A DNA stretch of 64,000 nucleotides, taken from positions 26,855,919 to 26,919,918 of the forward strand of contig JARFYF010000046.1 of the NCBI GenBank assembly GCA_030265395.1, given 5' to 3'. The notes beneath the pieces are model-generated. The model ran no database searches. It saw only the letters and a list, made by a program, of their open reading frames with translations, and had not been told where the DNA came from. Made by a program: the position numbers and the translations under genes. This document shows, in pieces, positions 585-61,797 of this stretch (its first letter is position 1; each line of letters starts with the position of its first letter). Source of the stretch: Rhina ancylostomus (Eukaryota).

Positions 585-641
585 CTTGTTGATCACGATA
601 AGTAGGAACACCTGTTAAACATTCGCAAACATCTTCTGGAT
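585..641 (-). CDS. Internal coding exon (57 nt, phase 1-1) of unidentified gene; NPEDVCECLTGVPTYRDQQ
   Basis: Acceptor aaatgtacttttag|AT, donor CAAG|gtattt, stop-free, frame-compatible with the 2869-2940 exon. Confidence 0.65.
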
Positions 642-2149
642 CTAAAAGTACATTTAAGAAGTAATGTATTAGATAATGTGAAGAAAAGCTCATATTGATT
701 GCCCTAAATTTTGGTCAGTTTCCATTTTGTTTAAAGAACATTAACAATACATATTTGCATTAATAATCAATGCTTAAAATACTGGAGCAGAATTTCTAAA
801 CCTCTCTGTCAAAAATCTTCCAAGCAGATTAGATTAAAAAAATAAACCTATTATTAAAATTACCCTCTTTTTGTCTCCACTAAGTTGCAGAAAACACAAT
901 GTGCACTAAAGGTGTGTGCAAAATACGTTGAGCAGATGTTGCATGAATCCATTCATGTGTCTTGCAAAATTTGTTACATTATTGGTCCCCATTCCCAATT
1001 AAATAAATGTTGCTATGCTATCAGTGTCTGACCTTTCATCGGAATTGTACATCCATGATAACTTTTGAAGGCACCTGGCAATTTTTAAAAGAACTGGTCG
1101 TATCTTGGCTTGGTTGGTAAAATGCTGGACATCTCAGTTTAATTGAAAAAATGCACTTTTGAAAGCAAAAATTGCTTGGAAAAGGTGATGATTCTAAAGT
1201 TCCTACATGTTCCAGCACTTCACCAGTGGTATTCGAGGAGCTGTCAAGTGAAAGTAGGAGTCACTGACGCCAAAACAGGCAGCACTGTCATCAGGTTATT
1301 TCCTAGCTGCCAGTGACAAGAAGTGCCAAAACTTGTCAATAGCAAGAGAATTAAATCTAGGAATAGTTGCAGAGTAGAAGTGTTCATATACTTGAATGGG
1401 GATTGTTCATCTCTCTAATTGCTGCTCCAGATCCAGCTACAAATTCACAATCTTCCCCAATCCCGCCTCCTTTACATTAGTCAAATCACTGTACAATGCC
1501 TAAATTCTTCGCTGCTGTTGCCGTTACATTGTGCACTACTTACTGTCTTACCTAATGCTTATTCTCAACTTCCACCCTTTTGTCCCCTGTGGCAAAATAG
1601 CTTTCCCCTCTTCTCCATTTCACCAACTGGTTTATTCTAGAATCGAGCCTGCACATTAACCACACTGGGTAAGCTAGGGCTTATTGACTGCCATGTTCAC
1701 AATCTCTTGCAGTATATTTTTGCAGCTGTAAAATTATTTCCACCATCAAATCACATCCTTTTTAATTTTCTTGCTAGCTTGAACAGTACTAGTTATCACA
1801 GGGACTAGAAATTTGGTCACTGAATGCTTTTTGTTTTGCAGTACTATGCAATTGAAAACTGAAGTGAAACACGAAAGCAAACGTCCAGCTCAGTTTTCAG
1901 CACTCTCGTTATTCAACCAGGCACTTCCCACCATGAATCGCATGTGAACAAATGATGTGCTTTTACAACCAGACACATACCCAATGGCACCAACTATCAT
2001 AAAATACAATTTTTCAGCAATGCTAGGTGAAATTCACTCATGTTTTCCAGAAACCTGCCTTTTTTTGGTTACTCACAAAACAACCAGATTTTCATAATGC
2101 TGTTTGGTCTACCGCTACACAATTTGATGGGCCACTTACACTCTTACTT

Positions 2150-2560
2150 CCATCTTCTGTACTCTACTGCATTAAAAATCTGTCTATATCTGCCTTAAAA
2201 ATATACAGACTCTGCTTTTACCACCCTTTGATGAAGAGAGTTGCAAAGTCTCATGATCTACTGAAAGAAAATATTTAATTCTCCCAAAGTAGGAAACAAC
2301 CTATCCACATCCATCCTGTCAAAAACTCTCATGCTCATTTATGTTTCAATCATGTCATCTCTCACTCTTCTAAACTCTAATGGACAGAAGTCTAGCCTGT
2401 CCAACTTTTCCTCATTAGAGAACCTGTCCATTCCAGGTATCAGTCCAGTAAACCTTATCTGATTTGCTTACTATGCATTTATATCCTTCCTTAAATAAGG
2501 AGAGCAATTCCATACACACTACTCCAGATGTGGCCTCACCAATGCCCGATAAAGCACAAT
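2150..2560 (-). mobile_element. Degenerate CR1 LINE 3' fragment
   Basis: Reverse-strand similarity to the CR1 ORF2 C-terminus (tactccagatgtggcctcacc = RPHLEY motif) seen in better copies in this window. Confidence 0.65.
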
Positions 2561-2868
2561 TACCTTTCCATAGTGTTCAAAATCTGATGATAGCCCAACT
2601 ACTTTTATCCTCTTCCATTTTCTTCTTCTTTTCCTCCTGTGGTTCCTAATGCTGCTTCACTTGAGGGAATCCCGCAGGCAAGGATTTACTGACTTGCTCA
2701 GAAATGTGAATATATTAAGTTGTATCATACTATGGGTTAACAAAATAAATATAAATCCATGAAGACCATATCTTGTTCCAAACTCAATATTCAGGAAATT
2801 CTTGCATTCTTTTCTCCTCTTCCAAGCCCTGATGGATGACAACTCACATCTTTTCCTCAGTAACTTAC

Positions 2869-2940
2869 TCTGCTGGTCGGGTGATTTCTCTACATATTTA
2901 CTATTGAAGGGAGTGCTTTCGCTGCTCAAATTCAGACGGA
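2869..2940 (-). CDS. Internal coding exon (72 nt, phase 1-1); VRLNLSSESTPFNSKYVEKSPDQQ
   Basis: Acceptor gagtttag|TC, donor CAGA|gtaagt, lies within ORF 2657..2950 frame. Confidence 0.65.
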
Positions 2941-3159
2941 CTAAACTCATTTGAGTACATTAAAAAATAGTGTTTACACTTAATAGTTAGTTACTCAATT
3001 ATGTCTGAATTGTTCAAGATCTCCTCCACACAGACCTCTTTACTATTTTCAGCTGTTTCCCTTACAGCAAACTAAATTAACATAAAAATCTTAACAATTG
3101 AAATGAACTTTTGATTTAAACCCTTAAGTACAATTTTAGGCTAACTACACCTTAAGGTT

Positions 3160-3435
3160 GGGATCCTTCAAAAACTGAATTGAGAGGTGATCTCATTGAT
3201 ACACCCATAACTTTGAGAGAGAATTGCAAGGCAAATCCCAAGAAGTCTTCTTCTGTTGGAGAGTCCAAAATGAGATACAATACTCTCAGGATAAGGTGTC
3301 AGCATTTAGGACTGAGATAAAGAGAACTTGCTCCACGCAGCAGGCTGTAAATCTTTGGAGTTTACTGTGAGTACTCTGTTGAGTCAATTCAAGGCTGAGT
3401 TTGATACATTTTTGAACACTGAAGGAACAAGATCA
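3160..3435 (+). mobile_element. Degenerate CR1 LINE 3' fragment
   Basis: gagaggtgatctcattga ... tttaggactgagat ... aaggctgagtttgatacattttt matches the CR1 ORF2 end. Confidence 0.6.
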
Positions 3436-4017
3436 GACTTAGCTTATTTCCACATCTATTTCTTGTGTTATATATGCAGTCTCAATTTACCCAATAGGTC
3501 AAAAATATATCATTTGAAACAGCTAATTGCACAATTTTATGCTTAATGCCCAAATCAGCATAAAGAATCAATGGATTCCTGCATTTTTGTGAAGCTAAAA
3601 CAAAAAGTAAAAATGTACCAAGTCTCTCATGCTATTGTTCCTAGTTACTTTCAAGAATAATGAAAACATTAGTTTTCTTGAACTTCTCTGAAACTTGGGT
3701 GCAAAGCAAACAAACAAATATATAATTAAAGCTTGCAAAATAATCAGATGCATCTAAGTTGTTGGCTGGAGAGACATGCAAGGCTAGAGGTAGTGCTGTA
3801 AGATTTTTGAACATTCTGGAGATTTTCAGAGATAAAAGAGCCCTTCATACCTCTCTGTTCTTAAAGGGGTACCTAACTTACATAACATAAACCATACGCG
3901 TTACACAGCTGAACCTTCAGATACTATGCTATTGCTTATCAGTGATTCCTAGGATGTTGTGCCAGGGATAGCGACCTTTTTACTTTGTTATATTCCTTTC
4001 TGCCACTTTATTGTTTA

Positions 4018-4235
4018 CAGGTCTTCCCAGTTTATGGCAGGGCTTCATTTCTCTGAACGGTTCATAACCCAAACAGTTCACATGTCAGAAATGTGGCCAG
4101 GAACCGAGTCCCCTTGTGGCAGAAGATACCTGCAGCCCCACAGCAACTGGCAAATCCATACAGCCAGTTTCCTAAACACACATTTGTATGTATGGACTGT
4201 ACATAAGTTGGGCATTTGTAAATTGGTAGGACCTG
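4018..4235. mobile_element. Tigger/pogo-like (Tc1/mariner) MITE
   Basis: Imperfect TIRs caggtcttcccagtttatg / tgtaaattggtaggacctg flanked by TA on both sides. Confidence 0.7.
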
Positions 4236-4804
4236 TATAGCTTTTCTTACTTTAAGACCCCCTCAGCCAAATAAAGTGTAGAAGTAAATCCAATAATGAT
4301 GGTAGTAGTCTAATTTTATTTAAGCTTTAGTTTTGTTCAGCTGTTGATCATTTGTTATAATGAATTCAGGCAATTAAACTCCAGTTGTGGCAAAAAAAAC
4401 AAAAGAAGCCAAGGTCAGGAAGAAAATAAAAACTGAAAATACTTCACATGAAATTTATATATTAAGATCTTTCCTTTTGTGGACAAGTATTAATATTGGA
4501 GATATTACCCTGAAACTACTTTAATCTGGAATAGTTTATTAGCTACTTTTGATGTGTAGGGAGACCAAAGGGAAAGGAAAATTATATATTCTATTTACCA
4601 GTTACCGGACAAGAGAGACATTTTTAACTTCAGGAATGATTTTGAATATTTCTAAAAAATTTCTAGAAAACTAGTCGGTTTCATTTTTACCAACCAATTT
4701 CAACAATATTCATTTTCCAAACCCTTTTCATTTCTATTCGTTGATATGATATGCTAAATGCATATACTTTTCAGCTAAAACATTTCTGCACATGTCCTTT
4801 CTTC

Positions 4805-5845
4805 AGGTATTGTAAATATCCTGATTGGTTGCATCATGATTTGGTACAGAAATTTGAATGCACAGGAATGCAAGAAGCTGCAGAGAGTATTGGACTCTGT
4901 CCAATACATCACAGGCACATCCCTTCCCACCATTGGTTGTATCTACAGGAGGCACTGCCTCAAGGAGACAACATCTTTCATCAAAGATCCCTATCATATG
5001 GGCAATGCCATCTTTTAGCAGGTACCATCAGGCAAGAAGTACAGAAGCCTGAAGTCCCACACCATCAGGTTCAAGAACTCGGATCTTGGGGTCCGAGTCC
5101 ATAGGACTCTCAAAGTGGCTGCGCCGATTGACTCTTGGTTAGGAAGGCATATGGTGGATTGTCCTTCAATCGGGGAATTGAATTTAGGAGCCGAGAGGTA
5201 TTGTTGCAGCTATATAGGTCTCCGGTCAGACCCCACTTGGAGTATTGTGCTCAGTTCTGGTCACCTCACTACAGGAAAGATGTGGAAGCCATAGAGAGGG
5301 NNNNNNNNNNNNNNNNNNNNNNNNNNNNNNNNNNNNNNNNNNNNNNNNNNNNNNNNNNNNNNNNNNNNNNNNNNNNNNNNNNNNNNNNNNNNNNNNNNNN
5401 GGTGGATACGATAGGGTCTTTCAAGAGACTGTTAGATAGGTACATGGAGCTGAGTAAAATAGAGGGCTATGGGTTAGTCTGGTAACTTCTAGGTTAGGGA
5501 CATGTTCGGCACAGCTTTGTGGGCTGTAGGGCCTGAACTGTGCTGTAGTTTTTTCTATGTTCTAACAGCTACTTCCCTTCAACCATTTGAACCAACCGAC
5601 AAAACCCAAATCCTACAGTTAAGCAACACTATGAGCGCTTTGATCACTTTGTACTAAAATGGGCAGTTTTTTCTTCTAACTGTGTTCTTTCTTGTAAAAA
5701 TTGTGTATAACTTATGTTTATGTTTCACTTGTGAATGCTGCTTATATGATGCCATGTGCCTGTGATGTTGCTGTACATAAGTTTTACGTTGCACCTGCAC
5801 ATACATGTACTTGTGCTATGATAATAAACTTGACTATGACTTTGA
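4805..5845 (+). mobile_element. Rex1/Babar-type LINE 3' fragment interrupted by a CR1 insertion
   Basis: Peptide WYRNLNAQECKKLQRVLDSVQYITGTSLPTIGCIYRRHCLKETTSFIKDP; resumes after 5562 (aacagctacttccc); tail aataaacttgactatgactttgac. Confidence 0.7.
5081..5562 (+). mobile_element. CR1 LINE 3' fragment (spans an N gap), nested in the Rex/Babar copy
   Basis: ORF 5135..5485 LYRSPVRPHLEYCAQFWSPHYRKDVEAIER ... SFKRLLDRYM; tail ctatgttct. Confidence 0.85.
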
Positions 5846-6332
5846 CAGTTTAACTGATACTCTATTCTGTGGTATCGCTAAATAATGCTGCAAAAATAAA
5901 TTCGGATGCATGAAAAGAAGGCCAAGGATATTTGACAATGGGCTTTACATAGCCACCATTACCGAAATTACATTCCCAGCAAAGGGGCTTCCAACTGTGC
6001 AAAATTATGAAATTATTGATGGGTTCCCCATTTTACTAAAGTTATAAGAGTGCTACTATTAAGGTTCAACATGTTATTATGGTGACCCATCATACTGGTA
6101 ATATGTATTAGATGTCTTATCACTAAATTCAAATGCCAATAAATGGAAACTGCCTTATCATCTTACTGGCATGTCAACAAATTTGCTATTAACAAGATCC
6201 TTAAAATGTATTTAATGGATTATCAGCTTTCATTGATAAATTAAAATACTTAAAAAAGCCGAACCCTTAGTCTTTTAAAGTTTTGTCACTAGTATTACTT
6301 GAAGACAAACATTTAAAAAATTTAAATCATAC

Positions 6333-6422
6333 CTATAATGTAGTGACAAAGTGTTTCTACTGGTGTTTCAACTTTAGGTGGTGAGAGTATTATCGGATAT
6401 TTATCGTAATCCATGTCCACAG
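6333..6422 (-). CDS. Internal coding exon (90 nt, phase 1-1); AVDMDYDKYPIILSPPKVETPVETLCHYII
   Basis: Acceptor aaatttgtttcag|CT, donor ATAG|gtatga, within ORF 6322..6582 frame. Confidence 0.75.
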
Positions 6423-7199
6423 CTGAAACAAATTTAACAGTTACCATAGTCAACTTCAGATTGATAAGAACTTGTCTGAACTGTAATTTTTGTAAGTTTG
6501 CTACACATTTTGTTTTGCAAGAGCAACAAAAATGCAAGATAATTAAACAATCAAATATAATAAATTGTTTAACTCTGTCCATTTATAGAATGAACAATCT
6601 GATAAAATAACACACTTGTATTTTTGGTAAATTATAAAAAATACATTATTTTATGCATAATACATAATGTATACATAATACATGGCAATTACATTATTTA
6701 TTATTTATCATTCAGTTGCTAGAAATATACACTCTCCGTATGCAGATGAAATGAATGAAATGGAAATGGCAACTTGTGTAGGAGTGCATACAAGGCATGG
6801 ACAATAATCTAATATTTGCTTGAGTAGCTTAGTGACACATTAGCTTGCTTGACTTGAAACAATGAAGGAAATAGATGCCAGAAAAAATTATTACAATTTT
6901 CAGTATTCACAATATACTTAACAATTTCCATGCATTCTGTCAGCTACCTAACACAACATTTTAGATACTCAGGTGATCTAGATACAAGGCCATGAAACTA
7001 CACAGAACAAAGCTTATTAACTTTATTATTTGTCACATTATGAAAGGAGATTGCTTTCAACAGAAAATACTAAAATCAAACAGCCTGCAGATCCAGGACA
7101 TCAAATTTTTAGTAGCTCCAAGAAGATAATTGTAGAGGTCATAGGACAGAATGTTGTATGTCACTGCTGACAACAAATGACAGAATATCATATTTCTTT

Positions 7200-7535
7200 A
7201 CAACATAGAAAGAAGCCATTTGGTCCATCTAGTCTATGCTAGTCCTCAGAGCAATTCCAACAATCCCACTCCCCCAGTTATTTTCCCCATAACTTATTTT
7301 TTTCATGCAGAGCCATTAACACCTTGCTGATTCTCCCACCGGGCACCTATATCAGGAATAGTTTACAATTAATTAACCTAACAACCAGCATGTCTTTGAG
7401 ATATGAGAGGAAATCCACATGGCCACAGGAAGAACATGCAACCCCGCACAGACAGCTCTGGAGTTCAGAATCGAAACTGAGTCACTGCAGCTGTGAAGCA
7501 TCTGCAGGTCCTGCAGCACCACTGTGTTGCCCTGC
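7200..7535 (-). mobile_element. tRNA-derived V-domain SINE with CR1-type tail
   Basis: Reverse complement of the head/core of SINEs at 18575 and 31555; tail resembles the CR1 3' end. Confidence 0.75.
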
Positions 7536-9353
7536 GGCCATGATCTCTCTTTGTATTATTGTAACAATATATGTAAAATTATGTTTAAGTAAATTATGTG
7601 AGTTAAATATGGCTTTTCAAAACCAAACAGGCTGCAAATCCAAGTGCATCAATATTTTTAACATATTCAAGTCAATTACAGAAGTAATAGCACATAAACA
7701 GCTTTACCAGCTTGAAAAGAATAACTATGCAACTTATATAGTAGAATGCCACATATGATGACAACAACTGGAGTAAATATGCATTTGCTCCACATTATTG
7801 GAATTAAATAACATAACTCTCAAATTATATTTCAAAAAGTGCTGGGAATGAATATGCAATTTATTCTCTGTGACGAAATTACTAACTTTGCACATGTACT
7901 AATCACGTGCTATTTTCTTCATTTTATAGCTACATTTAAACTCCGGTTGAAGAAATTGAATCCCCTAGCCAACAATTTACATTCAATTAGTTGCACCGGT
8001 CTTAATGGAAGCAAATGAGAGTTCAGACCTAACCTGCTAAGGGACAATATTTCCTTTTGTCAAAGATGTGTTGCAACAATTAATCTAATTAAGTTTCCTG
8101 AAGGAGTCTTTGTTGGTAAAGAGATATGAATCAATGTATGCCATATATATGAACTGCCAGGAGGTATTTAGTTAATTACTGGACCAGAATTTACTAGACA
8201 AATTGAGAAGCATGGAATTGGAAGCCCCTTTCTGGCATGGATAAGGAACTAGTTGGATGTTAGGAATCAAAAAGTTAGATAAAATAGACTTTCTTCAATT
8301 GGTAGTCAGGGACGAGTCCTGACCCAGAGATTAATACTGTGTTCCAGTTTTCACTTTATAAGATACATTTTATTAATGTATAATGCCTATGTTTAGTATC
8401 ATCAACCAGAAGGCATCCTCTCATTTTTGTATCCTTTCATTTTAGTAACCAATAATTGTATGAGTACACATATATCCCCATTAGATAAGGCTTTGGGTCA
8501 GTGGTTCATATATGAATATATAGCCACATATAACTAAATGGATTTGAGGATCAAGAAGGCTATCACCCTATAATAATAAATAATACAAACTTACAAATAG
8601 TAAAGTGAGCAAAAACCCATAATGGTAAACAAATCAAGGGAATAGAAATTGAGGATTTCAGTATAAAATAACAAGATTCTTTGGCTTTGAAAATGGCAGA
8701 TTTCAAAGTAGTTGGAAGGTTTGATGGGGATAGTGAGGTAGGTAACCATTAGGAGATATTGAGCCCGGGTATGGATTAAAACTGTAATGAGGTTTGGTGC
8801 CGGGAGCTTGGCTAAAATACAACTGGTTGGTGACACTTAACAGCACAGTTGAAGACTTCTACCATCAATTAGCTGACAATTGGGTTAATTTGCCCAGTTC
8901 AACTTGTCCTGATTTTTGAGATAATATTTCCCATTATTTTCTAGATGCTTGTGTTTATTGCTGCACTGGTGCAGTGTGGGTGCAGGTACAGATGGTTCAG
9001 GAGTAAAAGTCTTTAACACTAACTAGGATGTCATTTGGACCTGTAGCCTTTCACGTATCTTGAGCACACAAGCCACTTCCTCATATAACACAAAATGACT
9101 CAAATTGGCTGAAAACTGATATCTGTGACTCAGGAAGAGCCAGAGGTGGTCATTCACTTAAGAATTCTGATTAGAGATAAGTTCAATGCAGTTAATGGTC
9201 AATAGGCCTGTGAGCAAGACTGAGTAGCAGTAAAAATGGAAAAGGATCCATTATTACTTTCTACAAGTCTCTACACTGTTCATACAGATAAAGGAAAATT
9301 AGTGTTTTTAATGCCAGTAAAAAAAAGGTATTTTAATGCATCCCAAACAATAC

Positions 9354-9404
9354 CTTGCATATGGTGACAAGATCCAATGAGATCAAACTTCGCGAAACTT
9401 AAGA
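9354..9404 (-). CDS. Internal coding exon (51 nt, phase 1-1); VLSFAKFDLIGSCHHMQ
   Basis: Acceptor atattttttttcag|TC, donor CAAG|gtattg; similar to exon 13932-13982. Confidence 0.75.
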
Positions 9405-10689
9405 CTGAAAAAAATATTGGAGAAAAATTGTGATCATCAGTTTATAAACCTTTACACTTAACCTTGTCTGTTAGGGTTAATCAGGAATTTTATTTGATGG
9501 TAAGTGTCCTCAAATAAAATCAAATTAAATAATACCTGATTAATTTTGGAAAGGTATGGGCAAATTCAACCCCTAGTATACCTGCAAGATATTCAGAAGT
9601 TCCATAGAAATCCAACCCTGCATCTGAAAGACATTTAAGGATCACTAAAATCAGCACAATTCTAAACATTTATACTTTGTAATGTTCAGATTTTGTCAAG
9701 ATATTAGGTTGAGTTTATGAAACCGGGCTTTGCACACCAAGGTGTGGTCCTATCCATATTGGCTTAGCCCAATTTTTTGAGGCAAACTCTTCTCTCTCAT
9801 CTGAATGAACCCCTAGCATATGGAACAAGGAAAAAAGCCAGTTTTGCAAGTTATTTGAATGCAAGTTCCAGAACTGAAAGCAATTCTTGCTGCCTGAGAA
9901 CACACAATGAAGGAAGATAACCTGGTTTAGTGCTAAGATGTCCACCTAGGAAATCATAAATGGAGGGGGCTATCAAGAAAATAAATGCAACTACCAGGTC
10001 TACCAGACTTGAAAGCAAAGGAGGAAAGACATCAACAAAGTGCTAAGGTAAATACAGATATATTTATGTACATTTATACTCTCCCTTCACACAAGCCACA
10101 GATTCAATATAAATTTTAATCTGAGGATACCTAGGGAGATGAATGTAAAAACGTGCATTGTACACTGAAACCGATTTATAACGGTGCTGGAATTAGAAGC
10201 TACATGAGATATTTGTAGCTAACAATAAAAATAGATAATCCTTCAAGAATATCAGTAAGAAACATTCAATGGAAGCTATTATGAAGATAACTGGCACAGA
10301 GAGGCTGGTTAACATGACACAAGCATGCTGCCTGTGATGGTTAGACAATTACTAACATCTCCAAAAATGTGGCATGCTTGTAAAGAGAAACAAGAGGATT
10401 GGTAAACCAGATTACAGTACCATTTTGACAAATAGGTAAAAGAGATAGTTTTTACTTTAGAGAAATGACTCTCACTCTTTATGGCAATGAATAGAAAGAC
10501 AATGGAATAACTGAGTTTAGATGAATGTTCATTTATGGTGTGATCTTATCCATGGGAGGCTGGCTTAGNNNNNNNNNNAGATCAACCAGGCAGAAGTATT
10601 CTTCATTTCTCATAAGAGCTGTTACAAATCCTATCAGGAGATACATTTTCAAAACAACAGCAGAATGGAATCATAGAAATTAAGATTAT

Positions 10690-12140: not shown

Positions 12141-12149
12141 GACTGTTGG

Positions 12150-12645: not shown

Positions 12646-12679
12646 TTGTCCTCCTTTAGTACCAATAGTATTTCCAAAA

Positions 12680-18905: not shown

Positions 18906-18960
18906 GAAATACATGGATTAAATAAGCAAATGATTTCTCAATGACAGTGAAAAATCTTAC

Positions 18961-41593: not shown

Positions 41594-41615
41594 GAATGTC
41601 ATTTTAAAATTATAC

Positions 41616-50185: not shown

Positions 50186-50189
50186 TAAA

Positions 50190-51790
50190 CCTAAATGGAT
50201 CAGCTACATAAATACAATGGCTACAAGAGCAGGCTAACATGGTATGATTGACCTGCCTCATCCCAAATGCTTTCGACCAACTAGAAACATCATATTCTCC
50301 ACTTGCCTGATGGAGTCCAGGTCCAACATCTCTTCAGCTCAACATCATCAAGGTCAAAACAGCCCACATGATTGTCACCCTATAAACTATATATACAAGT
50401 CCTCCATAGTCTACAAATGCCCAATTTATGTACAGCATATACATACGAACGAGCGTTTGGGAGATGGGCAGGATGGATATTGCAAGCTGCTGCGGGACTG
50501 CAGGTGTCTTCTGCCATGTGGCAACTCAGCTTGAGCCATATTTCTGACTTGTGAATGATTCAGATTACAAACAGTTCTCAGGAATAGAATGCTGTTGTAA
50601 CCTGGGGAGGACCTATTAACTCCATCACCAGCACATAGAGTCTGCGGTGCATACCATCTGCAAAATACACTGCAGTTACTTGTCTTGGCTACTCTGACAG
50701 CATCTCCTAGACCAACAATCTTATTATCAAGAAGTACACAGTGAAGAAGGATATCTAAGATTATGACGGGATCAGTGGGCTGAGGAATGGCAGATGGAGT
50801 TTAATTTAGATAAATGCAAGGTGATGCATTTTGGTGAGACAAACCAGGACAGGACTTCCAAATGATAGGGCCCTGAGAGTGTTGAAAAACAGAGAGATCC
50901 AGGGATGCAGGTATATATTTCCTTGAAAATGACGACAGAGATGGACAGAAGGCATTTAGCATGTTTGCCTTCGTCAGTCAGGATACTGAGTACAGGAGTT
51001 GGGATGTCATGTTACAGTTGTATAAGACGTTGGTAATGCAATGTTTGGATTACTGGATACAGTTCTGGACATCCTACTATAGAAAAGATGTCATTAAACT
51101 GGAAAAAGTACAAAAACGTTTATGAGGATGTTACTGGGTATGGAGGGTTTTAGTTATAAGGAGAGGCTGAATAGGCTAGGAGTGTTTCAATGTAGCATAG
51201 AGGCTGAATGGTGACCCTATAAAGGTTTATAAAATCATGAGGGGCATAGAATAGCCACAGTAGGTCACTACTGTATGTATGACCCAGGTAGGGGAGTGCA
51301 AAATTAGAGGGCATAGGTTTAAAGTGGGAGGAGAAATATTTAGAAGTGACCTGAGGGGCAGCTTTTCACACAAAGAATGGTCCATATATGGAACAAGCTG
51401 CCAGAAAAAGTGGTAGAGGTGGGTACAATTATGACACTTAAAAGACATGAACAGGAAAGGTTTAGAGAGATATGGGCCAAACACAAGCAAATGGGACTAG
51501 CTCAGTAAGGCAACTTGGTCAGCATGGACAAGTTGGGCTGAAGGGCCTATTTTCCACACTATATATCTCCATGACTCTATGAATCTGTACATGTGCAGCA
51601 CGGAACTGGGAACACCATTACATTCACTGGTCTTTCGTCCTCGTTGGGTGTAAAGCATGGAATTCCCTGTCCAGCAGCACTTTTGGAGGACACCCACTAT
51701 AAAAGCTAACAGTGGTTTAAGAATTCTCATCACCACCTTTTCAAATGCAATTAGGGATAGCCAATAAATGCTGTCCTTGGAAGGACACCC
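50190..51790 (+). mobile_element. Old LINE 3' fragment interrupted by a CR1 3' segment (~50770-51580)
   Basis: CR1 tggcagatggagtttaatttagataaatgc ... atgactctatga; host tail aattagggatagccaataaatgctg. Confidence 0.75.
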
Positions 51791-51909
51791 AGNNNNNNNN
51801 NNNNNNNNNNNNNNNNNNNNNNNNNNNNNNNNNNNNNNNNNNNNNNNNNNNNNNNNNNNNNNNNNNNNNNNNNNNNNNNNNNNNNNNNNNNNAGGACACC
51901 CAGATTCCT

Positions 51910-52590
51910 AGTTACTCTTATTCTTTTGCCCTTAATATACTTGTAGGATCTCTTTGGACTCTCCCTTCTCAGCCAAAGTTATCTAATGTCCCCATTTTGC
52001 CCTCGTAATTTCCCTCTTGTGTACTCCTACATGCTCTATACTTTTCAAGGGATTCACTTGATCCCAGCTGCCTATATCTGACATATGTCTGCTTTTTTTT
52101 CACCAGAGCCTCAATATCTCTAATCATCCAGAATTCCATACTGATGCCAGATTTGCTCTTCACCCTAACAGGAACAAGCTGTCCTTGAACTCTTGCTATC
52201 TCATGTTTAAAAGCCTTCTACTTGTCAGATATCCCTTTACCTGCAAACAGCCTCCCCCAATCAACTTTTGAAAGTTCCTGTCTAATGGCAGCTAAATTGG
52301 CCTTGTCCCAGTTTTGGACTTTAATATGTGGACCAGTCTTATCCTTTTCCATAACTATTCTAAAACTAATAGAATTATGGTCACTGGTTCCAAAGTGCTC
52401 TCCCACTTACACTTCAGTCACTTGCCCTGCCTCATTTCCCAGGAGGAGGTCAAGTTTTGCCCCTTCTCTAATATGGCCATCTACACATTGATTGAGAATT
52501 TTTTCCTGAATACACTTAACAAATTCCTCACCATCCAAGCCCTTAATACTTCAGCATTCCCAGTTGATATTTGGAAAGTTGAAATCCCAT
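51910..52590 (-). mobile_element. CR1 ORF2 fragment (endonuclease end/linker)
   Basis: GEHFGTSDHNSISFRIVMEKDK...NWDKAN...IRQELSKVDW. Confidence 0.9.
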
Positions 52591-52932
52591 AAATTTATTA
52601 ACCAAAACATTAGTAGTTAAGAAAGCAACCCGGACTTCGCAATTAACAATTAGCAATGCAATTAACTCCTTTCTGTGGGAAAGGACCTGATCTCTCCTCA
52701 TGACACAGCTAAGATCAGGAATCTGGCACGCCAAGGATCATAATTGCAATTTTCTCCCTATTACTTTGTATTTCAAAACTTTTTCGCCCAACTTGCAGTT
52801 CTGCCCATGACAATAAATATAAAATACTTGATAAAGTTATAGTTAAGCTTGCATTATAAAACCTGCTGTATATTACTCAAGAAAGTATGCTAAAGTTTAC
52901 AAAGAATAATGAACATATATTTTCAAATGTAC

Positions 52933-52992
52933 CTGGAGATAAATGTGAAGCAGCTCCAGATTGCATCTCTGTACCTGTTGTAAGCCCTGCAT
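52933..52992 (-). CDS. Internal coding exon (60 nt, phase 1-1); DAGLTTGTEMQSGAASHLSP
   Basis: Acceptor aaatatgttttag|ATGCAG, donor CAG|gtacat. Confidence 0.75.
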
Positions 52993-53432
52993 CTAAAACA
53001 TATTTAACAAATCATAGAGGCACACATAAAAGGAGATTTTAACCTTGCCAGCATTAATATCCAGAGGCCATCTGATGAGTTTATGAAAAATATTCAGGCA
53101 GCTGTCACAATGCATTTATCCTGCAGTATTCAAACCAATATTTGATCTTTCCCCCTTATGATGGCACTGGGGTCCAATTAAGATCGATGTGACTCAAGAC
53201 ACTTCCAATGTTACCTCTCCAATTCCAAGTTACACGGGTATTATTAACAANNNNNNNNNNNNNNNNNNNNTTGAGGTTCAGTAAAAGGTTCAGTTGTATG
53301 TACAAGGTTGGGGGCTGCCCACAATATGCCTGACAAGGAATTTTCGACAGAGAACAGGATGCTGTGTCCATTCACACTTAAATGTCATGCAGAGATTAGC
53401 ATTTGGAAGAAAAAGAACCACAGCAGTGTGCA

Positions 53433-53592
53433 ACACACACAAATGCTGGAGGAACTCAGCAGGTCAGGCAGCTGAGACCCAAAACGTTGACTGTTTATTT
53501 CCCTCCGTCGATGTTGCCTGACCTGCTGAGTTCCTCCAGCATTTTGTGTTTGTTGCTCCAGATTCCAGCAACTGCAGAATCACTTGTGCCTT
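53433..53592. mobile_element. Penelope-type hairpin insertion with 14-bp TSD
   Basis: TSD cacagcagtgtgca at 53419-53432 and 53593-53606; inverted arms atgctggaggaactcagcaggtcaggca / tgcctgacctgctgagttcctccagcat. Confidence 0.75.
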
Positions 53593-53776
53593 CACAGCAG
53601 TGTGCACTGGTTAAGGTTCACCAGGCTGAACGCATGGACAAGACAATAGGAGGAGAACTACTCAACTTCAATGTTAATGACATGCTAACAAAGCAGATTC
53701 AGAATCTGGTTAAAAAAACACGCTGAAGAACAAAATGACAAATGTGATAAGGGAGTCACTTATTTAATTCCCAAGA

Positions 53777-54078
53777 CAATAAAACTCTGATAACCTACTA
53801 CCTTTGGGTCTTTGTGGTACCAGACTGGCAGATTTTCCGATTATTGGATATTATCCCATCAAACTTTGAAGATGTTATGCAGTGGAATAATAAATAAATA
53901 TTACACAATGAAATAACAGTTTCTAGTAAAATAAATAAACATTCTACAGTAGTAAAATGAAGATTCTGGTGATCCTGGTGAGTTGAAAGGGAGCATGGGA
54001 CATGGTGCCTCAGTGAGCTAGATGCCGAACCATCAGGATTTCCAAATAATTGCTGAGTGGACTATCAGAGTTTTACTG
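53777..54078. mobile_element. Tigger/pogo-like MITE (~300 bp)
   Basis: TIRs caataaaactctgataacc / ggactatcagagttttactg. Confidence 0.7.
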
Positions 54079-54159
54079 AAATAATTACCTTTTATTTATT
54101 TTTCATTCAATTTTCAGTCAAACTACTTTTCTTATGAGAACTTTCTTAAATATAATTAC

Positions 54160-54186
54160 CAGAATAAGATTTATTAACGACTTCAT
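54160..54186 (-). CDS. Micro-exon (27 nt, phase 1-1); DEVVNKSYS
   Basis: Acceptor tttgtctttcttttaacag|AT, donor CTG|gtaatt. Confidence 0.72.
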
Positions 54187-54234
54187 CTGTTAAAAGAAAG
54201 ACAAACATGTAAGTTTTCAACATTTAAAAGGCCC

Positions 54235-54470
54235 ACAATTGCAGATGCTAGAAATCAGAAATGAAAACAGAATTCCAGAAACATTAAGGAGCATCTATGG
54301 AGAGAGAAAGAGAGACAACATTTCCAGTTGATGACTCTTCACCAGAACTTAGAAAAACTAAAGGTCAAACATGTCCTAAGTTGCAGAGAGGGGTGGAATG
54401 AAGAAGAAAAAAACAAATATCTTTGGAAGAGTGAAGACCAGAAGAGACTGAATGGCATAAGGCTTGATAA
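54235..54470 (-). mobile_element. Degenerate Penelope-like terminal-repeat fragment
   Basis: tgcagatgctagaaatcagaaat...; minus strand CTGGTGA-agagtcatcaactg-GAAA-tgtt. Confidence 0.5.
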
Positions 54471-55585
54471 TTGCAGATGATGTCTGGAGGTAATGCAAAT
54501 TGGGTGAATGTTAACAGAGCAGAAAAGAAAAAAGAAAAAAAAGCCTAAACAGCGAGATACAAACTGAATATAAAAATAAATAATTAAAAGGATACTTGGT
54601 GCATAAATAATTCAAGGTAAAGAATTTGGATGCTTCTTAATATATTTCATGTATATTACCAGAAATGTGTATACTTGCGTTGCTATCTGAAACATAAAAT
54701 TAGAAATAACTGTACGTTACATATATTAACATTAAGACTTAAAATGTGTACAATGACAAATCAGGTATTATCTCACTTCATAACAAGAAAATAGAACATC
54801 TACACTGCTTAAAAAAATGTGATAATGATGAGGAAAAGTCAGTTAGGGAAGCCACATTTTATTCCTAAAATGTTTATCGAAAGAAAGTTCAAACTTCTAA
54901 AGCGCATTTCATTGGGTTGACATTCTTGTTGGGGACATGTACCGAGTTTTTGGCAGGTAGGCTTTGTCTACGAGCTGCCTCCCCCAACTTAAAAATAAAT
55001 AATTTGGTAAAAGACCTTCTTTTCTGCATATCTAAAAGTAAAAATTTCCAAAATCAGTTAGATTGGAGTCCACAAGATGAAGGAGCCACACCAGGTTCCT
55101 GAGTATCTTGCACACATCTAGAGAAACTTTTTTTTATTGTGAACCAGCTCCAAATTAAATTAATAGAATGGAATTATTATTCCAAGCTGGTCTGGAAGTT
55201 GGTTTGGTTGTCACACAAGTGTGGTCTATCACTTGCTGTATTAGTGGAAATCCTGCTAGGGCAGAAATAAAACACTCATTCTGGGTTACTTCATCCGAAG
55301 ATGGTGCATGTATTAGCACTCAGAAACAAGGCATGTGTCACCTATTTAAATCTGTGTTTGAGCCAACAATGAAATCCTATTAACTGGCCTAAGACCTTCT
55401 CTTCTGCATTTCCTCTTTTATGTTGGAACAACCAATGAAATGATTTCAAGAGTGTTGGATAATTTATCAGATAACACAGATTCTGGAAACAGGTAATTTA
55501 TTAAAATTCCTTACCTGCCACTGGGAAGATTCAATTATTCTTTAAACCCACCCAGCAACTGCCACTTGTAAAAGGCATTATTTAC

Positions 55586-55606
55586 CTGACACAGATAAGC
55601 GAACTC
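55586..55606 (-). CDS. Micro-exon (21 nt, phase 1-1); GVRLSVS
   Basis: Acceptor ttttatgtatttttcag|GA, donor CAG|gtaaat. Confidence 0.6.
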
Positions 55607-57799
55607 CTGAAAAATACATAAAACATGGACGGCTGCCTTTTGATATTGGTTTATTATCATTTGTACCGAGGTACAGTGCAATAATACTATCAATAATTTC
55701 CATTGTCTCTCACAATTACATGCTTAATACAGCTTATAATTACATACTTTGCACAAATATTTAGTTTGTAATCATTGGAGAAGATAAAATGTGAAGAACC
55801 AAGAATATTATGTCAATAAGAAACTTAAAGTAATTAATGCTACTAAAAAATCCAGAGAAAATAAAAGGACTACATTCAGACAAATTCTTTAGACTGATCA
55901 TCTATCCCCCAATGTTCTGAAAGTGGCACTGTAATGATAATGGTTGTGTAAGCAATAATTGTCCAAAAGTCTCTAGGTTTTGAAAATACATGAGCAAACT
56001 GCAAAGTAGCAAATGTAACATCATGACTTAAGAAAGCTGACAGAGAGAAAATAGGAAACTATAAATCAGTTAGCCTGAAAACAACAAATTTCACATCATA
56101 TGTCAGTGATAACAAATCTGATTCTGATGGCTGTAGTAAAAGTACTGGTGCAGTTATGAACATGATAGTCTTGCCAACTTGCCAATCAATAGCAAAAGGA
56201 AACATCAGCTATCATTAACTCGAGGAGTTCTATGCTCATGGCCAAATGCAGAATTCCAAGCCTCCTTAGTGGCAGATGCCAATGCAACAGGAGCCCAGCA
56301 GCGTAGCTGCATCTAGTTTGGATTTCCTAACATTATGCTGGGGAATCCATCTAGCCAATTTCTAAGACAGTCAGAGTTTGTAAAAAAAATCAGAGTCCCA
56401 AACATTTGAATGGGGATTTCTGACCTTCGGAGGAGAAAGGTAAGTTTTTGTTTACATATTTTAATTCTTTTTCATTATTTATTTGTGTTTTAATGTGCTA
56501 TTAACTTCATTTATTTGTTGATCATTTACATCTTCTGTAATTGTTTCTAATGTCTCCAAACATCAAAAACATTTTAAAATTGTTAAAAGATTCCCAATTT
56601 TGACAGAAGATGAAGCTTCTTCCTGAGTTTTTCACTATAGCCTCACCACACAAATCTTGGGTACTGAGGCTCAGAAAGAATGGCCCTCTACAATGGACTA
56701 GATGAGGACAGATAAGCAAAGAATATAAAGGGTGGCTTCAATTGACAGGCTGGGTCCAGTATGATCTGGCCCCATGTTACAGTTTGGCAGGGTCAACAAG
56801 TGGTATGAAGAGAAAAAGCTGTATTCTGAATCTAATTTGAATTGTTTGAGGACATATCAATTAGCAGTTAAGGGGAAGCTAGTGAATATAATGAGGGTTT
56901 GAATAGTTTGGTTTCACCACTAAAAATCAAAAAATATCCCCAAAGGCCCATTTTGAAAAGTTATTTGATATCTGTTTTCATTAATAATAACAATAATACC
57001 TTCCGGCATAAGTACCAATTGTGCAAAATTTATATTTTGCTAGAATGCTCCATTTGGCTTTCAAAAGTGGATTCAGACCACTGAAATTTCTATTTGATCA
57101 GGCGATGCATGACAGGAGTCAAAAAAGCCAGAGCAGTTAAAAGGCAGTCAAAACCAAGTGGAAAATACAAAGTACACGTAATTGCATGAAAGAAAATAAA
57201 GATTTTACCAATGAATGGAAATCATGAAATACTGTAAATACTGATGAGTCATTACTGATGTGGTTACCTCCAAAAGTGCCTGATAAGATTTCAGAACATC
57301 TATACAGTGCATCACATATAAATATGAAAATACAGTCGTGACTTCTGGAGCAGTACAGATTTTAATAATTGAAACTAGCTAATTTGAAAAGAAAACATGC
57401 AAAAGAGGAGGACACCATTCCAGAATTTATTCAGGCAATTTGGGATCATGTTCAATGGGACAGAAGAAGCCCTGTTGCAGGAACTCTTGTCATATGCACA
57501 TCAGCTTTTGGAGTAAGGATTTGCCACAGGTTCGGAAAAAACTATTAACAATACATGGCAAGCCTTGTCATAAAAAAATAGCCATTACTCTAATGAAAGC
57601 TCTGAAATAAATGGCAATCCAGTTCTTAGTATCCTGTTCACATTCTATGATCACAAGAACAAAAATGTGCAAATATGCAGCTTCCACTCTCTAGCAATTG
57701 ATGCCTTGATTCAATAACCAAACTTAACCAATTTTGCCAAACATTAAAAAAATTGTAAAACACCCCTGAACTGAACTGAAACTTAAAACAAAAACCAAG

Positions 57800-58900
57800 T
57801 TCAGATATCGTAAATGGGGATTTTCAAAAGGCACTTGATATAAAACAACACAAAAGGTTGTTATATAAAGTAATGGCTTAAATGGTTGAAGCTAACTTAC
57901 TTGCATTGAAAGAGAATAAGTTAAACAGCAAAAAACATAAAGGAACAAAGAATCATTTATAGACTAGCTGGCTGTTATTAAGTGGATTGACACATGGCAC
58001 AAAATTCAATACTAAGCACTCAGCTATCCACCATTAATATGAATAAATCAGATTAAAAGACAAGTATATAAATTTGCAGATGATGCAAAAATATGTAATG
58101 AAGTGAGCTGTGAGGTGGACATGAAGAATATGTGAAAAAGACAGATTAAGAGAACAGGCAATGTCAAAAAGATATGGCAATAATACACTATTATTAAGAT
58201 GTAATAATGATTATGTGGGAAATGTGAGATCATTCAGGAGACAGAGAAAAACAGAATACTTTAAGTACTGAAAAACCAGGATTTGTGGGTGCAGAGAGAT
58301 ACTGGTGTGCTTGTTTATGTGATGCAGAAAGTAAACATGCAAGTACAGCAAGCAATAAGTAAGACAAATTATACTTTAACCTTTATTGCAAGTTAGTTTT
58401 AGCACAAAAACAAGTCTTACTGATATTGTAGAGGGCGTTGTTGAAAATACATTTCAATACTGCACGGTGTATTTAATGCAGTACATATCTGTCTCATTTC
58501 TTCAAAAGGATTTATTTGCTTTGGAGAGGGTAGACCGTAGTTTCATTGAATTAGTTTCAGAGATGAGATGTTATCGAAGAGAGAATGAGTAGGACTGGCC
58601 TGCACTAATTTAGCTTTAAGAGATTAGAAATAATCTCAATGAAACATACTGAAATTCCATTCCTAAACTGTTCTTTCTCATCGATGCCAGGAGGCCACTT
58701 CCTTTAGAACTATGGGGTCACAATCTCAGGGTTAGGGGTTCACCATTTAAAACTGAGATGAGAAATTTCTTTTCACATAGAATTGCTTTATCATTCTTTT
58801 TATGACATGGACCTGGATCCTTGGTAGTTAAGTTTATTCAGGGCTGAGACTGATAGACTTTTGGGCATCTGAGGGAATCAGAGGAAATACTTTTCCCTAA
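57800..58900 (+). mobile_element. Highly degenerate CR1 RT/3' relic
   Basis: gattttcaaaaggcacttgata (DFQKA), aaatttgcagatgatgcaaaa (KFADD), ttggagagggtag. Confidence 0.7.
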
Positions 58901-59759
58901 AGGATGTATGTTTTTCCAAATTACGGGTCCTTTGACAACCTTCAGCACAATTTCCCCAACTCATCAAGATCTGCTCGAAGATCACGATTGTCATCTACAA
59001 TCCTAACACATGCAATTTTCAGGTCAAGCTCCATACTCCATGTAAATTATTGATAAAAATAGTAAACTACAGCAAACTGACAATCTGTCCCTGAGGGGCC
59101 AACTGCACCCATTCTCTAAATTCATCTATAACTGCTTTCTGCCTGTGGCCTTCCTGCCAATTCTTAATGAAGCTCAATCTATAACCATTAATACCAGATG
59201 ACTGAACCTTGCAAAGAAGCTTCTTTCAAAATAATGTCAAAATTTTCTTTTGCAAGCCTAAATAATAATGCATCTAGGGGTTCTCTCATCCATCACTTAA
59301 TGAGTTTTACAAAGTACGTCAACTACATAAGACACTGCAGTTCCAATGTGAATCCTCTAGGAAATACACTGTATCAATTCATCATTGCTTTTTCCTCCAC
59401 ATTTCAGAAACCCGTAACTCTATAATCCAGAAGAGTGTGAAGTGCATGGGACTTCGAAATAAAATTGTTGCTTCTTCATGACCACTGAGTCAAATTGCTG
59501 GATTTCCCTGCTAAATAGCCTCTGTGAGTATATTCCCTAGTCTGGCAACAGTGATACAATAAGGTGGTACATCACTATATCCTTAGAAGCTATTAGGAAG
59601 GGCAATAAATGCCACTATTGCCCAAATAACATGAATAAATTCTACTTTTTAGAAAATTTGATCAGTGTTCCAATTACATTTTCCACTGAACAAATAAACA
59701 TATTAAATATGCCTAATGGTTGTCCCAGCTTCTTTCTTACTACTTTTGTCAAACTAATT

Positions 59760-60020
59760 ATGACAACAGCATTTACATCATGATACAATGAAGCAAAACT
59801 CTCAAAGAATTGCTCAGAAGGATAATTAAACAAATGTAATGCTATGCCCATAAAATAGGCATTAGGACAATGACCAAAAGCTTGCTCAAAGAGGTAGGTT
59901 TTAAGGAGCACTTTACACATGAAAGAGCGTTTCAGGAAGGGAATTTCAGTGTTTAGAGTCTCAAAGGCTGAAGGTATGACTGCAAATGGTGGAACTATTA
60001 AAAGTAAGGTATGTGAAAAG
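59760..60020 (-). mobile_element. L2-like LINE 3' fragment
   Basis: aatgaccaaaagcttgctcaaagaggtaggttttaaggagc; related sequence at 63820-64000. Confidence 0.45.
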
Positions 60021-60024
60021 GGCC

Positions 60025-60816
60025 AGGTTACAAGTTTGACTGAGTTTATTGAGGAGGTGACAAAGGTGATTAATGAAAGTAGGGCAATGGATGTTGTCTA
60101 TGTGGATTTTAGTAAGGCATTTGACAAGGTCTGTCATGGTAGGCTGATCCAGAAGGGATCCATGGTGGCTTGGTAATTTGGATTCAGAATTGGTTTGCCC
60201 ATTGAAGACAGAGGATAGTGGTGGAAGGCTGTTATTCCAACTGGAGGTCCATGACCCATGGTGTTCCACAGGGATCAGTGCTGGGGCCTCTGTTGTTTGT
60301 GAGAAATATAAATGACTTAGATGAAAAATGTAGATGGGTGGACTAGTAAGTTAGCAGACTACGCAAAGATTGATGGAATTGTGGACAGTGTAGAGGGCTG
60401 TCAAAGGATACAGGAGAATATCGATCAGTTACAGATATGAGAAGAGAAATGGCAGATGGAGTTCAATCCAAGCAATGTGAGGTGCTACACTTTGGAAGGT
60501 CTAATGTAAGGAGAGAGTATACAGTTAATGACAGGACCCTTAACAGCACTGATGTACAGAGGAATCTTGGGGCCCAAGTCCATAGCTTACTAAACGTGGC
60601 CACACAAGTTGATAGGGTGGTAAAGAAGGCATATGGCATCTTGCCTTCATTGGTCAGGGCATTAAGCATAAGAGTCAGGAAGTCATGTTGCAGCTAATTA
60701 AAACTTTGGTTAGGCTGCACTTGGAGTACTATGTGCAATTCTGGCTGACCTATTACAGGAAGGATGTAGAGACTTTGGAAAGGGTACAGACGAAGTTTAC
60801 CAGGATGCTGCCTCGA
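60025..60816 (+). mobile_element. CR1 RT fragment running into an N gap
   Basis: [55 protein letters not shown]. Confidence 0.92.
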
Positions 60817-61731
60817 NNNNNNNNNNNNNNNNNNNNNNNNNNNNNNNNNNNNNNNNNNNNNNNNNNNNNNNNNNNNNNNNNNNNNNNNNNNNNNNNNNNN
60901 NNNNNNNNNNNNNNNNNNNNNNNNNNNNNNNNNNNNNNNNNNNNNNNNNNNNNNNNNNNNNNNNNNNNNNNNNNNNNNNNNNNNNNNNNNNNNNNNNNNN
61001 NNNNNNNNNNNNNNNNNNNNNNNNNNNNNNNNNNNNNNNNNNNNNNNNNNNNNNNNNNNNNNNNNNNNNNNNNNNNNNNNNNNNNNNNNNNNNNNNNNNN
61101 NNNNNNNNNNNNNNNNNNNNNNNNNNNNNNNNNNNNNNNNNNNNNNNNNNNNNNNNNNNNNNNNNNNNNNNNNNNNNNNNNNNNNNNNNNNNNNNNNNNN
61201 NNNNNNNNNNNNNNNNNNNNNNNNNNNNNNNNNNNNNNNNNNNNNNNNNNNNNNNNNNNNNNNNNNNNNNNNNNNNNNNNNNNNNNNNNNNNNNNNNNNN
61301 NNNNNNNNNNNNNNNNNNNNNNNNNNNNNNNNNNNNNNNNNNNNNNNNNNNNNNNNNNNNNNNNNNNNNNNNNNNNNNNNNNNNNNNNNNNNNNNNNNNN
61401 NNNNNNNNNNNNNNNNNNNNNNNNNNNNNNNNNNNNNNNNNNNNNNNNNNNNNNNNNNNNNNNNNNNNNNNNNNNNNNNNNNNNNNNNNNNNNNNNNNNN
61501 NNNNNNNNNNNNNNNNNNNNNNNNNACACAAAATTTGCTGACCAACAGATTCAATTATGCAGCAGCATAAAGAATCGCAGATTGTTGCAAAATTCTTCAC
61601 TGTCAATGAATTAATTTTATGTTCTATAACTACTTTGTAATATGGCAGCCAAACTGGGCAGAAACAAAATCAAACATATGATCAGATAATAACATTTTAA
61701 TGAAATAAAATTACCAATATGGACAATATAC

Positions 61732-61797
61732 CTGATGTCGAAGGCAAAGATTGTTCTTTCAAAACCAGTGACCCTTTTCTCTGACTAACATCCTCAT
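61732..61797 (-). CDS. Internal coding exon (66 nt, phase 1-1); DEDVSQRKGSLVLKEQSLPSTS
   Basis: Acceptor tatctcatatttcag|AT, donor CAG|gtatat, stop-free. Confidence 0.72.

Follow-up and report, generated by a model that had tools for sequence, protein, structure and literature searches.

Symmetric micro-exons in the genome of the ray Rhina ancylostomus as the likely linker of a two-FIIND gene of the CARD8/NLRP1 family

In the current view the inflammasome-family proteins CARD8 and NLRP1 are soluble sensors, each with a single self-cleaving FIIND, and disordered arrays built from symmetric exons are known from titin PEVK, CD44 and triadin. Here we analysed a 64,000-nucleotide stretch of the 2.2 Gb genome of Rhina ancylostomus (the window; contig JARFYF010000046.1, hereafter C46, 26855919-26919918), with 100 kb added per side, and found on its minus strand a run of very small phase 1-1 exons that almost certainly belongs to a FIIND locus. 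These micro-exons are likely the first half of an acidic linker of ~600 residues, predicted to be disordered. Our overall reading, which we hold with moderate confidence, is that of one membrane-anchored CARD8-family protein with two FIINDs and the micro-exon linker between them, acting as a brake or scaffold of inflammasome signalling.

To place the exons, we used the ZU5 exon upstream of the window as a query and obtained nine proteins, all from cartilaginous fishes and the nearest from Hemitrygon akajei (93%). Mapping these nine back onto the locus gave a minus-strand gene model of 46 exons spanning ~175 kb (+90239 to -84949; coordinates outside 1-64000 are relative to the window), with all 45 introns GT-AG and one open frame of 1440 amino acids, in the order ubiquitin-like domain, FIIND1, linker, FIIND2, CARD8-like CARD and hydrophobic tail. 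On the same strand, FIIND exons flank the window at 17 kb on its upstream side and at 74 kb on its downstream side. A Pfam scan of the flanks, covering 145 open reading frames (ORFs; 143 from a list of 272 on the minus strand, and two additional ones), returned ubiquitin, FIIND twice (E 2.4e-24 and 7.6e-23), UPA and CARD; no NACHT or LRR was found in the 46-exon model, in the Narcine protein or in the 145 scanned ORFs. The Narcine model contains two FIIND and two UPA stretches. The CARD directly follows UPA in FIIND2 only, and FIIND1 runs into the linker. The best PDB matches were the CARD8 CARD and the NLRP1 and CARD8 FIINDs; for the CARD, tested on one orthologue, CARD8 ranked best, and the FIIND of the skate (Amblyraja) orthologue gave a fold match to 7crw and 7jn7. 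The parts of the gene are as follows.

89969-90239 (C46 26945887-26946157), minus strand: E1, ubiquitin-like first exon
Between E1 and FIIND1, minus strand: three phase 1-1 micro-exons
71439-80727 (C46 26927357-26936645), minus strand: FIIND1, E7-E10
67544 down to -67872, minus strand: linker, 30 exons, all phase 1-1 (29 consecutive and one more)
1..64000, minus strand: the window, wholly inside the gene model between FIIND1 and FIIND2, FIIND exons on both flanks
C46 26788046-26854440, minus strand: linker beyond the window
-38532..-38452, minus strand: extra 81-nucleotide (nt) linker exon
-73978 to -82857 (C46 26773061-26781940), minus strand: FIIND2, E42-E45
-84492 to -84949 (C46 26770969-26771426), minus strand: E46, CARD and tail of ~55 residues

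A preliminary description of the window had seen in these exons a modular, probably disordered region assembled from symmetric phase-1 exons, and for this protein of cartilaginous fishes that view stands. The gene, which the description had left unidentified, can be recognised as a member of the CARD8/NLRP1 family that encodes a ubiquitin-like domain, two FIINDs and a CARD; nor does it consist entirely of tiny exons, its domains sitting in ordinary exons outside the window.

Within the window, the minus-strand set comprises 13 exons (639 nt, 213 codons), all AG/GT-bounded, in phase 1-1 and stop-free. They are given below with two degenerate copies and, where available, their matches in orthologue models.

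61732..61797, minus strand: linker exon E12, 66 nt, phase 1-1; AG/GT, open; 17/21 in Hemitrygon, 15/21 in Narcine, three skates match
55586..55606, minus strand: linker exon E13, 21 nt, phase 1-1; 6/6 identical in Narcine and Hemitrygon
54660..54686, minus strand: linker exon E14, 27 nt, phase 1-1; below the z bar; 9-residue segment at the same place in the Narcine and Hemitrygon models (by eye)
54160..54186, minus strand: linker exon E15, 27 nt, phase 1-1, opening cassette copy 1; 5/8 in Hemitrygon (z 4.8); has paralogues
52933..52992, minus strand: linker exon E16, 60 nt, or 42 nt when counted from an inner acceptor, phase 1-1, the later of the two exons in cassette copy 1; below the z bar; paralogue of E18; Narcine has a 14-residue segment there (by eye)
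46673..46690, minus strand: E17, a candidate linker exon of 18 nt, phase 1-1, in cassette copy 2; good splice scores; 70% DNA paralogue of E15, flanks included
45561..45628, minus strand: degenerate copy of E16/E18, assembled length 68 nt, not divisible by 3
43325..43351, minus strand: degenerate copy of E15/E17, a 27-nt micro-exon in cassette copy 3 that has lost its pyrimidine tract
41616..41684, minus strand: linker exon E18, 69 nt, phase 1-1; 10/22 in Leucoraja (z 5.0), 9/22 in Rhinoraja (z 3.9)
26104..26163, minus strand: linker exon E19, 60 nt, phase 1-1; 11-12/19 in four orthologues
13932..13982, minus strand: linker exon E20, 51 nt, phase 1-1; 13/16 in Narcine; DNA paralogue of E21
9582..9623, minus strand: linker exon E21, 42 nt, phase 1-1; 10/13 in Narcine
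9354..9404, minus strand: linker exon E22, 51 nt, phase 1-1; 14/16 in Narcine, Amblyraja and Leucoraja
6333..6422, minus strand: linker exon E23, 90 nt, phase 1-1; 20-21/29 in three orthologues
585..641, minus strand: linker exon E24, 57 nt, phase 1-1; 12-13/18 in three orthologues; paralogue of the next two exons past the window

Each exon was compared with 11 orthologue models at z ≥ 3.5, with 60 shuffles each. By this test 10 of the 13 window exons and 26 of the 30 linker exons matched at least one orthologue model, versus 0/9 decoy candidates; the bar is a loose one, two out-of-order matches reaching z 3.6. Weighing against the exon set are the exons that stayed below this bar (E14, E16, E17 and E33, a window share of 3/13) and the fact that the junctions are those of database gene models. 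E17 (46673..46690) had no match among the 11 orthologue models, its one support being its paralogy to E15 (54160-54186). The 68-nt copy is likely a pseudo-exon, or a 36-nt exon from a weak inner acceptor; its length is that of the assembly, so that an assembly error there is possible. Several further candidates were rejected: a 72-nt exon at 2869-2940 (acceptor score -10.4) matched no orthologue, an extra 51-nt exon at 37259-37309 had no orthologue match and aligned poorly to the cassette, and seven others were likewise unmatched.

Eleven of the 13 exon lengths in the preliminary description were recovered, matched by length and order, as phase 1-1, AG/GT-bounded and stop-free exons with lengths divisible by 3, and both end exons that it implied (585-641, 57 nt, and 61732-61797, 66 nt) are present on the minus strand. 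Its 72-nt exon and one of its 51-nt exons were not recovered, it had missed the 42-nt exon (9582-9623) and a second 27-nt exon, and its ~230 codons compare with the 213 found here. The caution that its weaker members might be false was fair, because splice signals alone are at background level: using crude position-weight matrices, we counted symmetric phase-1 stop-free candidates on the minus versus the plus strand as 47 vs 34 (loose), 13 vs 10 and 6 vs 6 (strict), and at none of the three thresholds did splice-site scoring, which had been proposed as a check, separate the exons from background. Comparison with chondrichthyan proteins, another proposed check, was informative, as annotated ray and skate proteins match 10 of the 13 window exons in order; the first and last exons, sought in neighbouring DNA as had been suggested, were found there (E1 upstream, E46 downstream).

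The linker as a whole (578 amino acids, net charge -57) contains 25% order-promoting residues, versus 41% in FIIND1. In the AlphaFold model of the Amblyraja orthologue the ubiquitin and FIIND folds are confident, and the linker has a predicted local distance difference test score (pLDDT) below 50 nearly throughout, with one helix at E28-E29. The linker is predicted on this basis to be disordered; against this, the low scores may stem in part from a shallow alignment. Identity to Narcine varies along its length, from 62% in E11-E19, 80% in E20-E24 and 50% in E25-E27 to 83% in E28-E31 and 44% in E32-E34, with 76% in FIIND1, 86% in FIIND2 and 80% in the CARD. Thus, the region is not uniformly fast-evolving, as had been proposed: the last five window exons (E20-E24, 585-13982) are 80% identical to Narcine (70/87) and 72% to skate (70/97), comparable to FIIND1 (76% and 73%). 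They carry several Cys, His and Tyr residues and probably a binding motif; searching for a folded module in E20-E24 or E20-E31, we obtained no usable match in the ESM Atlas and low AlphaFold confidence, and found no fold or family.

Beyond the window, seven linker exons carry one [TVIL]QT motif each, a total of 7 versus 0.82 in shuffles (0/5000), and enrichment is also seen in four other batoids and, weakly, in catshark; Narcine has 7 motifs, Rhinoraja 8, Hemitrygon 6, Amblyraja 4+4 and catshark 3 (7/5000 shuffles). TQT is the usual anchor of LC8 (PMC12057147), and LC8 stiffens the 600-residue linker of KANK1 (PMC12803091). The far half of the linker would, judged by these motifs, bind LC8. 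Several observations count against such binding: the window itself has no [TVIL]QT motif, chimaera has one (not significant), strict TQT occurs in only 3/7 motifs, and the pattern was picked after the sequences had been viewed. The genome's own LC8-family matches come exon by exon. We also considered, and dropped, a caspase-cut linker: Asp occupies 16 of 30 junction codons because the junctions read G|AT, and caspase-type motifs number 1 vs 1.47 expected.

Given this architecture, the residues required for self-cleavage were compared. Both the Ser and the catalytic His are required (PMC3210808, PMC8081665), the His lying 27 residues before the Ser (NLRP1 H1186, CARD8 H270). Relative to human NLRP1, FIIND1 here keeps F|S and has Tyr at His1186 and His at Glu1195; FIIND2 has L|A at the cleavage site and Cys at the His position. 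The FIIND1 His-equivalent is Tyr in all five batoid and both catshark rows, and the FIIND2 site (L|A in both this genome and Narcine, L|G in Rhinoraja) has no nucleophile in 3/3 batoid rows. From these residues we infer that self-cleavage has been lost in both FIINDs here. An uncleavable CARD8 FIIND has been reported to bind DPP9 and to repress the freed CARD8 fragment (bioRxiv 10.1101/2021.01.13.426575, PMC11760013). The second FIIND gene of the genome (C94:73665877-73667200, minus strand) has an intact F|S, and its fragment would be a possible target of such a brake. The C-terminal tail has a hydrophobic stretch in 6/6 sequences (19-residue hydropathy 1.54-1.85, a modest signal) and is predicted to be a membrane anchor.

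Because neither FIIND here has the full set of residues that self-cleavage requires, and because the CARD would remain on a membrane, a tethered brake or scaffold seems to us likelier than a canonical sensor, although we put it forward tentatively, at somewhat less than even probability. In such a mechanism the tail helix would keep the CARD on the membrane, the far half of the linker would bind the dimeric hub LC8 through its TQT-type motifs, zipping two chains beside FIIND2, and the window exons would set spacer length. The FIINDs would act like the engineered uncleavable FIIND, binding DPP9 and holding freed UPA-CARD fragments of other FIIND proteins, and the ubiquitin-like domain would be a turnover handle, so that removal of the protein would lift the brake. 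An unlikely extension is that the exons are plug-in units, each providing one LC8 site or spacer, such that exon number, varied by duplication from species to species and by splicing in the individual, would set CARD clustering and the inflammatory threshold in a natural, tunable uncleavable-FIIND checkpoint of ancient origin in cartilaginous fishes.

The principal result opposing a brake is the F|S of FIIND1, kept in 9/9 rows, which indicates that cleavage existed and may persist. In addition, the FIIND1 His is kept, if only in chimaera and bamboo shark, the FIIND2 site keeps Ser/Thr in catsharks (L|S) and chimaera (L|T), the tail hydropathy (1.84) is below the best window elsewhere (2.23, in FIIND2), and the tail helix (402-425 in the shark model) has a pLDDT near 50. 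The catalytic residues among these points also favour a rival, which we regard as doubtful, in which the same single protein is a sensor: FIIND1 would cleave at F|S, degradation of the ubiquitin-like/ZU5 part or a cut in the linker would expose UPA1 or a new N-terminus, and LC8-zipped chains would cluster membrane-bound CARDs that recruit a caspase or adaptor, the micro-exon linker being an internal tripwire that changes exon by exon. Consistent with this, the CARD is most similar to that of CARD8, CARD8 has disordered tripwires (PMC10249858), an exon duplication just upstream of the FIIND in mouse NLRP1B adds a caspase-8 site (PMC11408587), and in some stretches of the linker identity to Narcine is no more than 44-62%. 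However, the Tyr in place of His in every batoid and catshark FIIND1 row argues against it, as do the missing FIIND2 nucleophile in batoids, owing to which degradation from a linker cut would continue into the CARD, the lack of enrichment of caspase sites (1 vs 1.47 expected) and the 80-83% conservation of E20-E24 and E28-E31, unlike that of a tripwire. We therefore retain the brake or scaffold as the preferred mechanism.

The exon array itself has a readily visible history. FIIND1 ends in phase 1 and E40, before FIIND2, begins in phase 1; therefore, an exon inserted between the two had to be 1-1 to keep the reading frame. Several sets of exons with their introns are paralogues sharing 61-81% of their DNA sequence (E15/E17, E16/E18, E20/E21, E22/E24/E25/E26, E32 with the extra exon, and E35/E36), and a two-exon cassette is present in three copies at 41.6-54.2 kb, one of which contains the 68-nt exon copy and one of which lacks its pyrimidine tract. 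The E18 unit is repeated two to four times in skate models and E39 three times in Hemitrygon. For several pairs, then, the array grew by duplication of exons together with their flanking introns, and some duplicated copies are now decaying; exon gain, loss and decay can be seen inside the window as well as from one species to another. The array fits a general pattern in which disorder goes together with symmetric exons and tandem duplication (PMC3632108).

Whether such an array serves combinatorial skipping, with tissue-specific linker lengths in the manner of titin PEVK or CD44, is a separate question and compatible with other readings. As the purpose of the array we consider it slightly more doubtful than the sensor. 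By phase, all 30 linker exons can be removed in frame, in agreement with the splicing potential suggested by the preliminary description; the Hemitrygon model lacks E8-E10 and E16-E27 in frame, and several acceptors score weakly. Yet none of six skate isoforms (three of Rhinoraja, three of Leucoraja) skips an internal exon, their differences being confined to first or last exons, the Hemitrygon gaps may be genomic loss or annotation error, and the phase symmetry is already explained by duplication having happened between two phase-1 boundaries.

Both FIINDs, the linker and the CARD probably form one gene. Narcine XP_069792258 joins both FIINDs, CARD and tail through linker exons, Hemitrygon XP_072923050 joins the ZU5 of FIIND1 to that of FIIND2, and Amblyraja XP_032898919 (E1 to about E35) overlaps Rhinoraja XP_078278003 (E29-E44). 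There is no stop or frame change between the FIINDs, and of three CpG islands in 264 kb one lies at the first exon and none inside the gene. Opposing this are the split models of Amblyraja, Rhinoraja, both catsharks, chimaera and the CARD part of Hemitrygon, as well as Leucoraja and Rhinoraja isoforms that terminate within the linker, and all these models are database predictions. A third homologue search returned only the three long models that earlier searches had given. Such splits would be expected if there were two genes side by side: upstream, a CARD-less ubiquitin-like-FIIND gene with a tail encoded by the window exons, and downstream, a TQT-linker-FIIND-CARD gene, with the Narcine and Hemitrygon models mis-joined. 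The locus is indeed split in most species' models, the catshark and chimaera models also stop inside the linker, and the 9,812 N in 48 gaps across the analysed span could conceal a first or last exon. We nevertheless find two genes quite unlikely: models from two genera span both FIINDs, neither a stop nor a frame change nor a CpG island separates the two domains, the downstream models begin at internal methionines at differing places, and the Amblyraja upstream model passes E28 to about E35 and so overlaps the Rhinoraja downstream model. Short CARD-less isoforms that arise from intronic 3' ends would fit one gene too. Titin, triadin, CD44 and similar genes as the identity of the array were dropped, with no search aimed at them, once FIIND exons and orthologues had been found.

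Several other features of the locus were recorded. E8-E10 (71439-74442), where the UPA and the cleavage site of FIIND1 lie, together make up 516 nt in phase 1-1; their in-frame absence from the Hemitrygon model is a possible isoform or an annotation error; alternative first exons joining E2 in two skates (2 of 6 isoforms) drop the ubiquitin-like domain. A 1,294-N gap adjoins the window start, where the additional exon-sized segment that skate models have between E24 and E25 could sit. The introns contain very high-copy interspersed repeats (e.g. blocks 4670-6003, 12007-13340 and 16009-18009), and a 31-nt tandem duplication lies at 61960-62026; both are ordinary. Upstream of the gene we found a Mpv17/PMP22 match (E 0.0011, below the Pfam cut-off) and a DNA polymerase epsilon match on the plus strand, presumably the PXMP2-POLE gene pair. 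The downstream neighbour, identified by eye, we take to be an acylphosphatase-like ORF on the minus strand in a CpG island, and beyond it is a Transmemb_17 match, minus strand and below cut-off.

To assess age and distribution, we built a quick tree of 72 of 187 FIIND stretches (the named orthologues and the first 45 others by id, near-duplicates dropped). FIIND1 (nine rows) and FIIND2 (seven rows) fall into separate clades, each containing chimaera, sharks and batoids and each supported by a Shimodaira-Hasegawa-like approximate likelihood ratio (SH-aLRT) of 99; by this tree both FIINDs are present from chimaera to rays. The same 72 stretches do not resolve whether a single internal duplication gave rise to the two FIINDs. 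A profile search of 1.84 billion representatives yielded 1047 matches at E ≤ 0.001, and architectures were scanned for 24 of 150 listed matches and the Narcine protein. Among these, lungfish, pheasant and two further proteins also have ubiquitin fused to FIIND, whether or not a CARD is present, tandem FIINDs occur in grouper, tetra, worm lizard and several others as whole-unit repeats or without a long linker, and the full two-FIIND linker architecture occurs in Narcine only.

In the open-access literature, with subscription journals mostly outside the search, we found no description of a two-FIIND linker gene, and no open-access papers on FIIND with a ubiquitin-like domain and CARD8 or on elasmobranch inflammasomes and CARD8. 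Among the entries of a survey of vertebrate inflammasomes (PMC11258412) are two FIIND accessions from the white shark, one of them noted as 'another guard like', which may be an orthologue of the ray gene (white-shark candidates are XP_041065155.1 and XP_041069175.1); the available part of the survey does not describe the two-FIIND linker architecture. The individual parts are already known. On our reading, cartilaginous fishes retain two FIINDs with complementary decay of their catalytic residues, a ubiquitin-like head, an LC8-type array and a predicted anchor, and the locus would be a natural test of a FIIND without cleavage and of LC8 control over CARD clustering. It is also a clear case of a disordered region assembled exon by exon between phase-1 boundaries, with copies arising and decaying, and it would correct annotations in which two or three genes, labelled 'uncharacterized' or 'NLRP1-like', stand in place of one locus.

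Compared with known systems, the gene most resembles human CARD8, which likewise has a ZU5-UPA FIIND followed by a CARD and a long disordered segment before the CARD-bearing FIIND, with no NACHT or LRR. It differs in its second, upstream FIIND, its ubiquitin-like N-terminus, the hydrophobic tail past the CARD and the absence of an F|S site from the CARD-bearing FIIND; moreover, the disorder of CARD8 is N-terminal and its chain ends at the CARD, whereas that predicted for the ray protein is internal, ~600 amino acids long and encoded by 30 symmetric exons. NLRP1 and NLRP1B share the FIIND-CARD end, and databases call pieces of the locus 'NLRP1-like'. In allele 1 of NLRP1B an exon is duplicated in the linker before the FIIND (PMC11408587, PMC11760013). 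The ray gene has no NACHT, LRR or PYD, has two FIINDs, and has 30 linker exons against that single repeat.

Titin PEVK, CD44 and triadin are alike in having a disordered region made of symmetric exons by internal tandem duplication, but a sequence relation to the ray gene is not expected, and none of the six skate isoforms shows cassette skipping. ASCIZ is a multivalent client of LC8 (DYNLL), and with such clients, KANK1 for example, the linker shares several TQT-type anchors in a long disordered chain; it differs in having one motif per symmetric exon and in belonging to an inflammasome-family protein that is a predicted LC8 client. PIDD1 has two self-cleavage sites, and MAVS and CARD19 are tail-anchored CARD proteins. 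For PIDD, two serines serve self-cleavage (PMC3210808). PIDD1 shares two ZU5-type cleavage modules per chain, which in the ray gene are two complete and distant ZU5-UPA units, and MAVS and CARD19 share a CARD held on the membrane by a C-terminal helix, as the ray CARD, adjoining its predicted anchor, may be.

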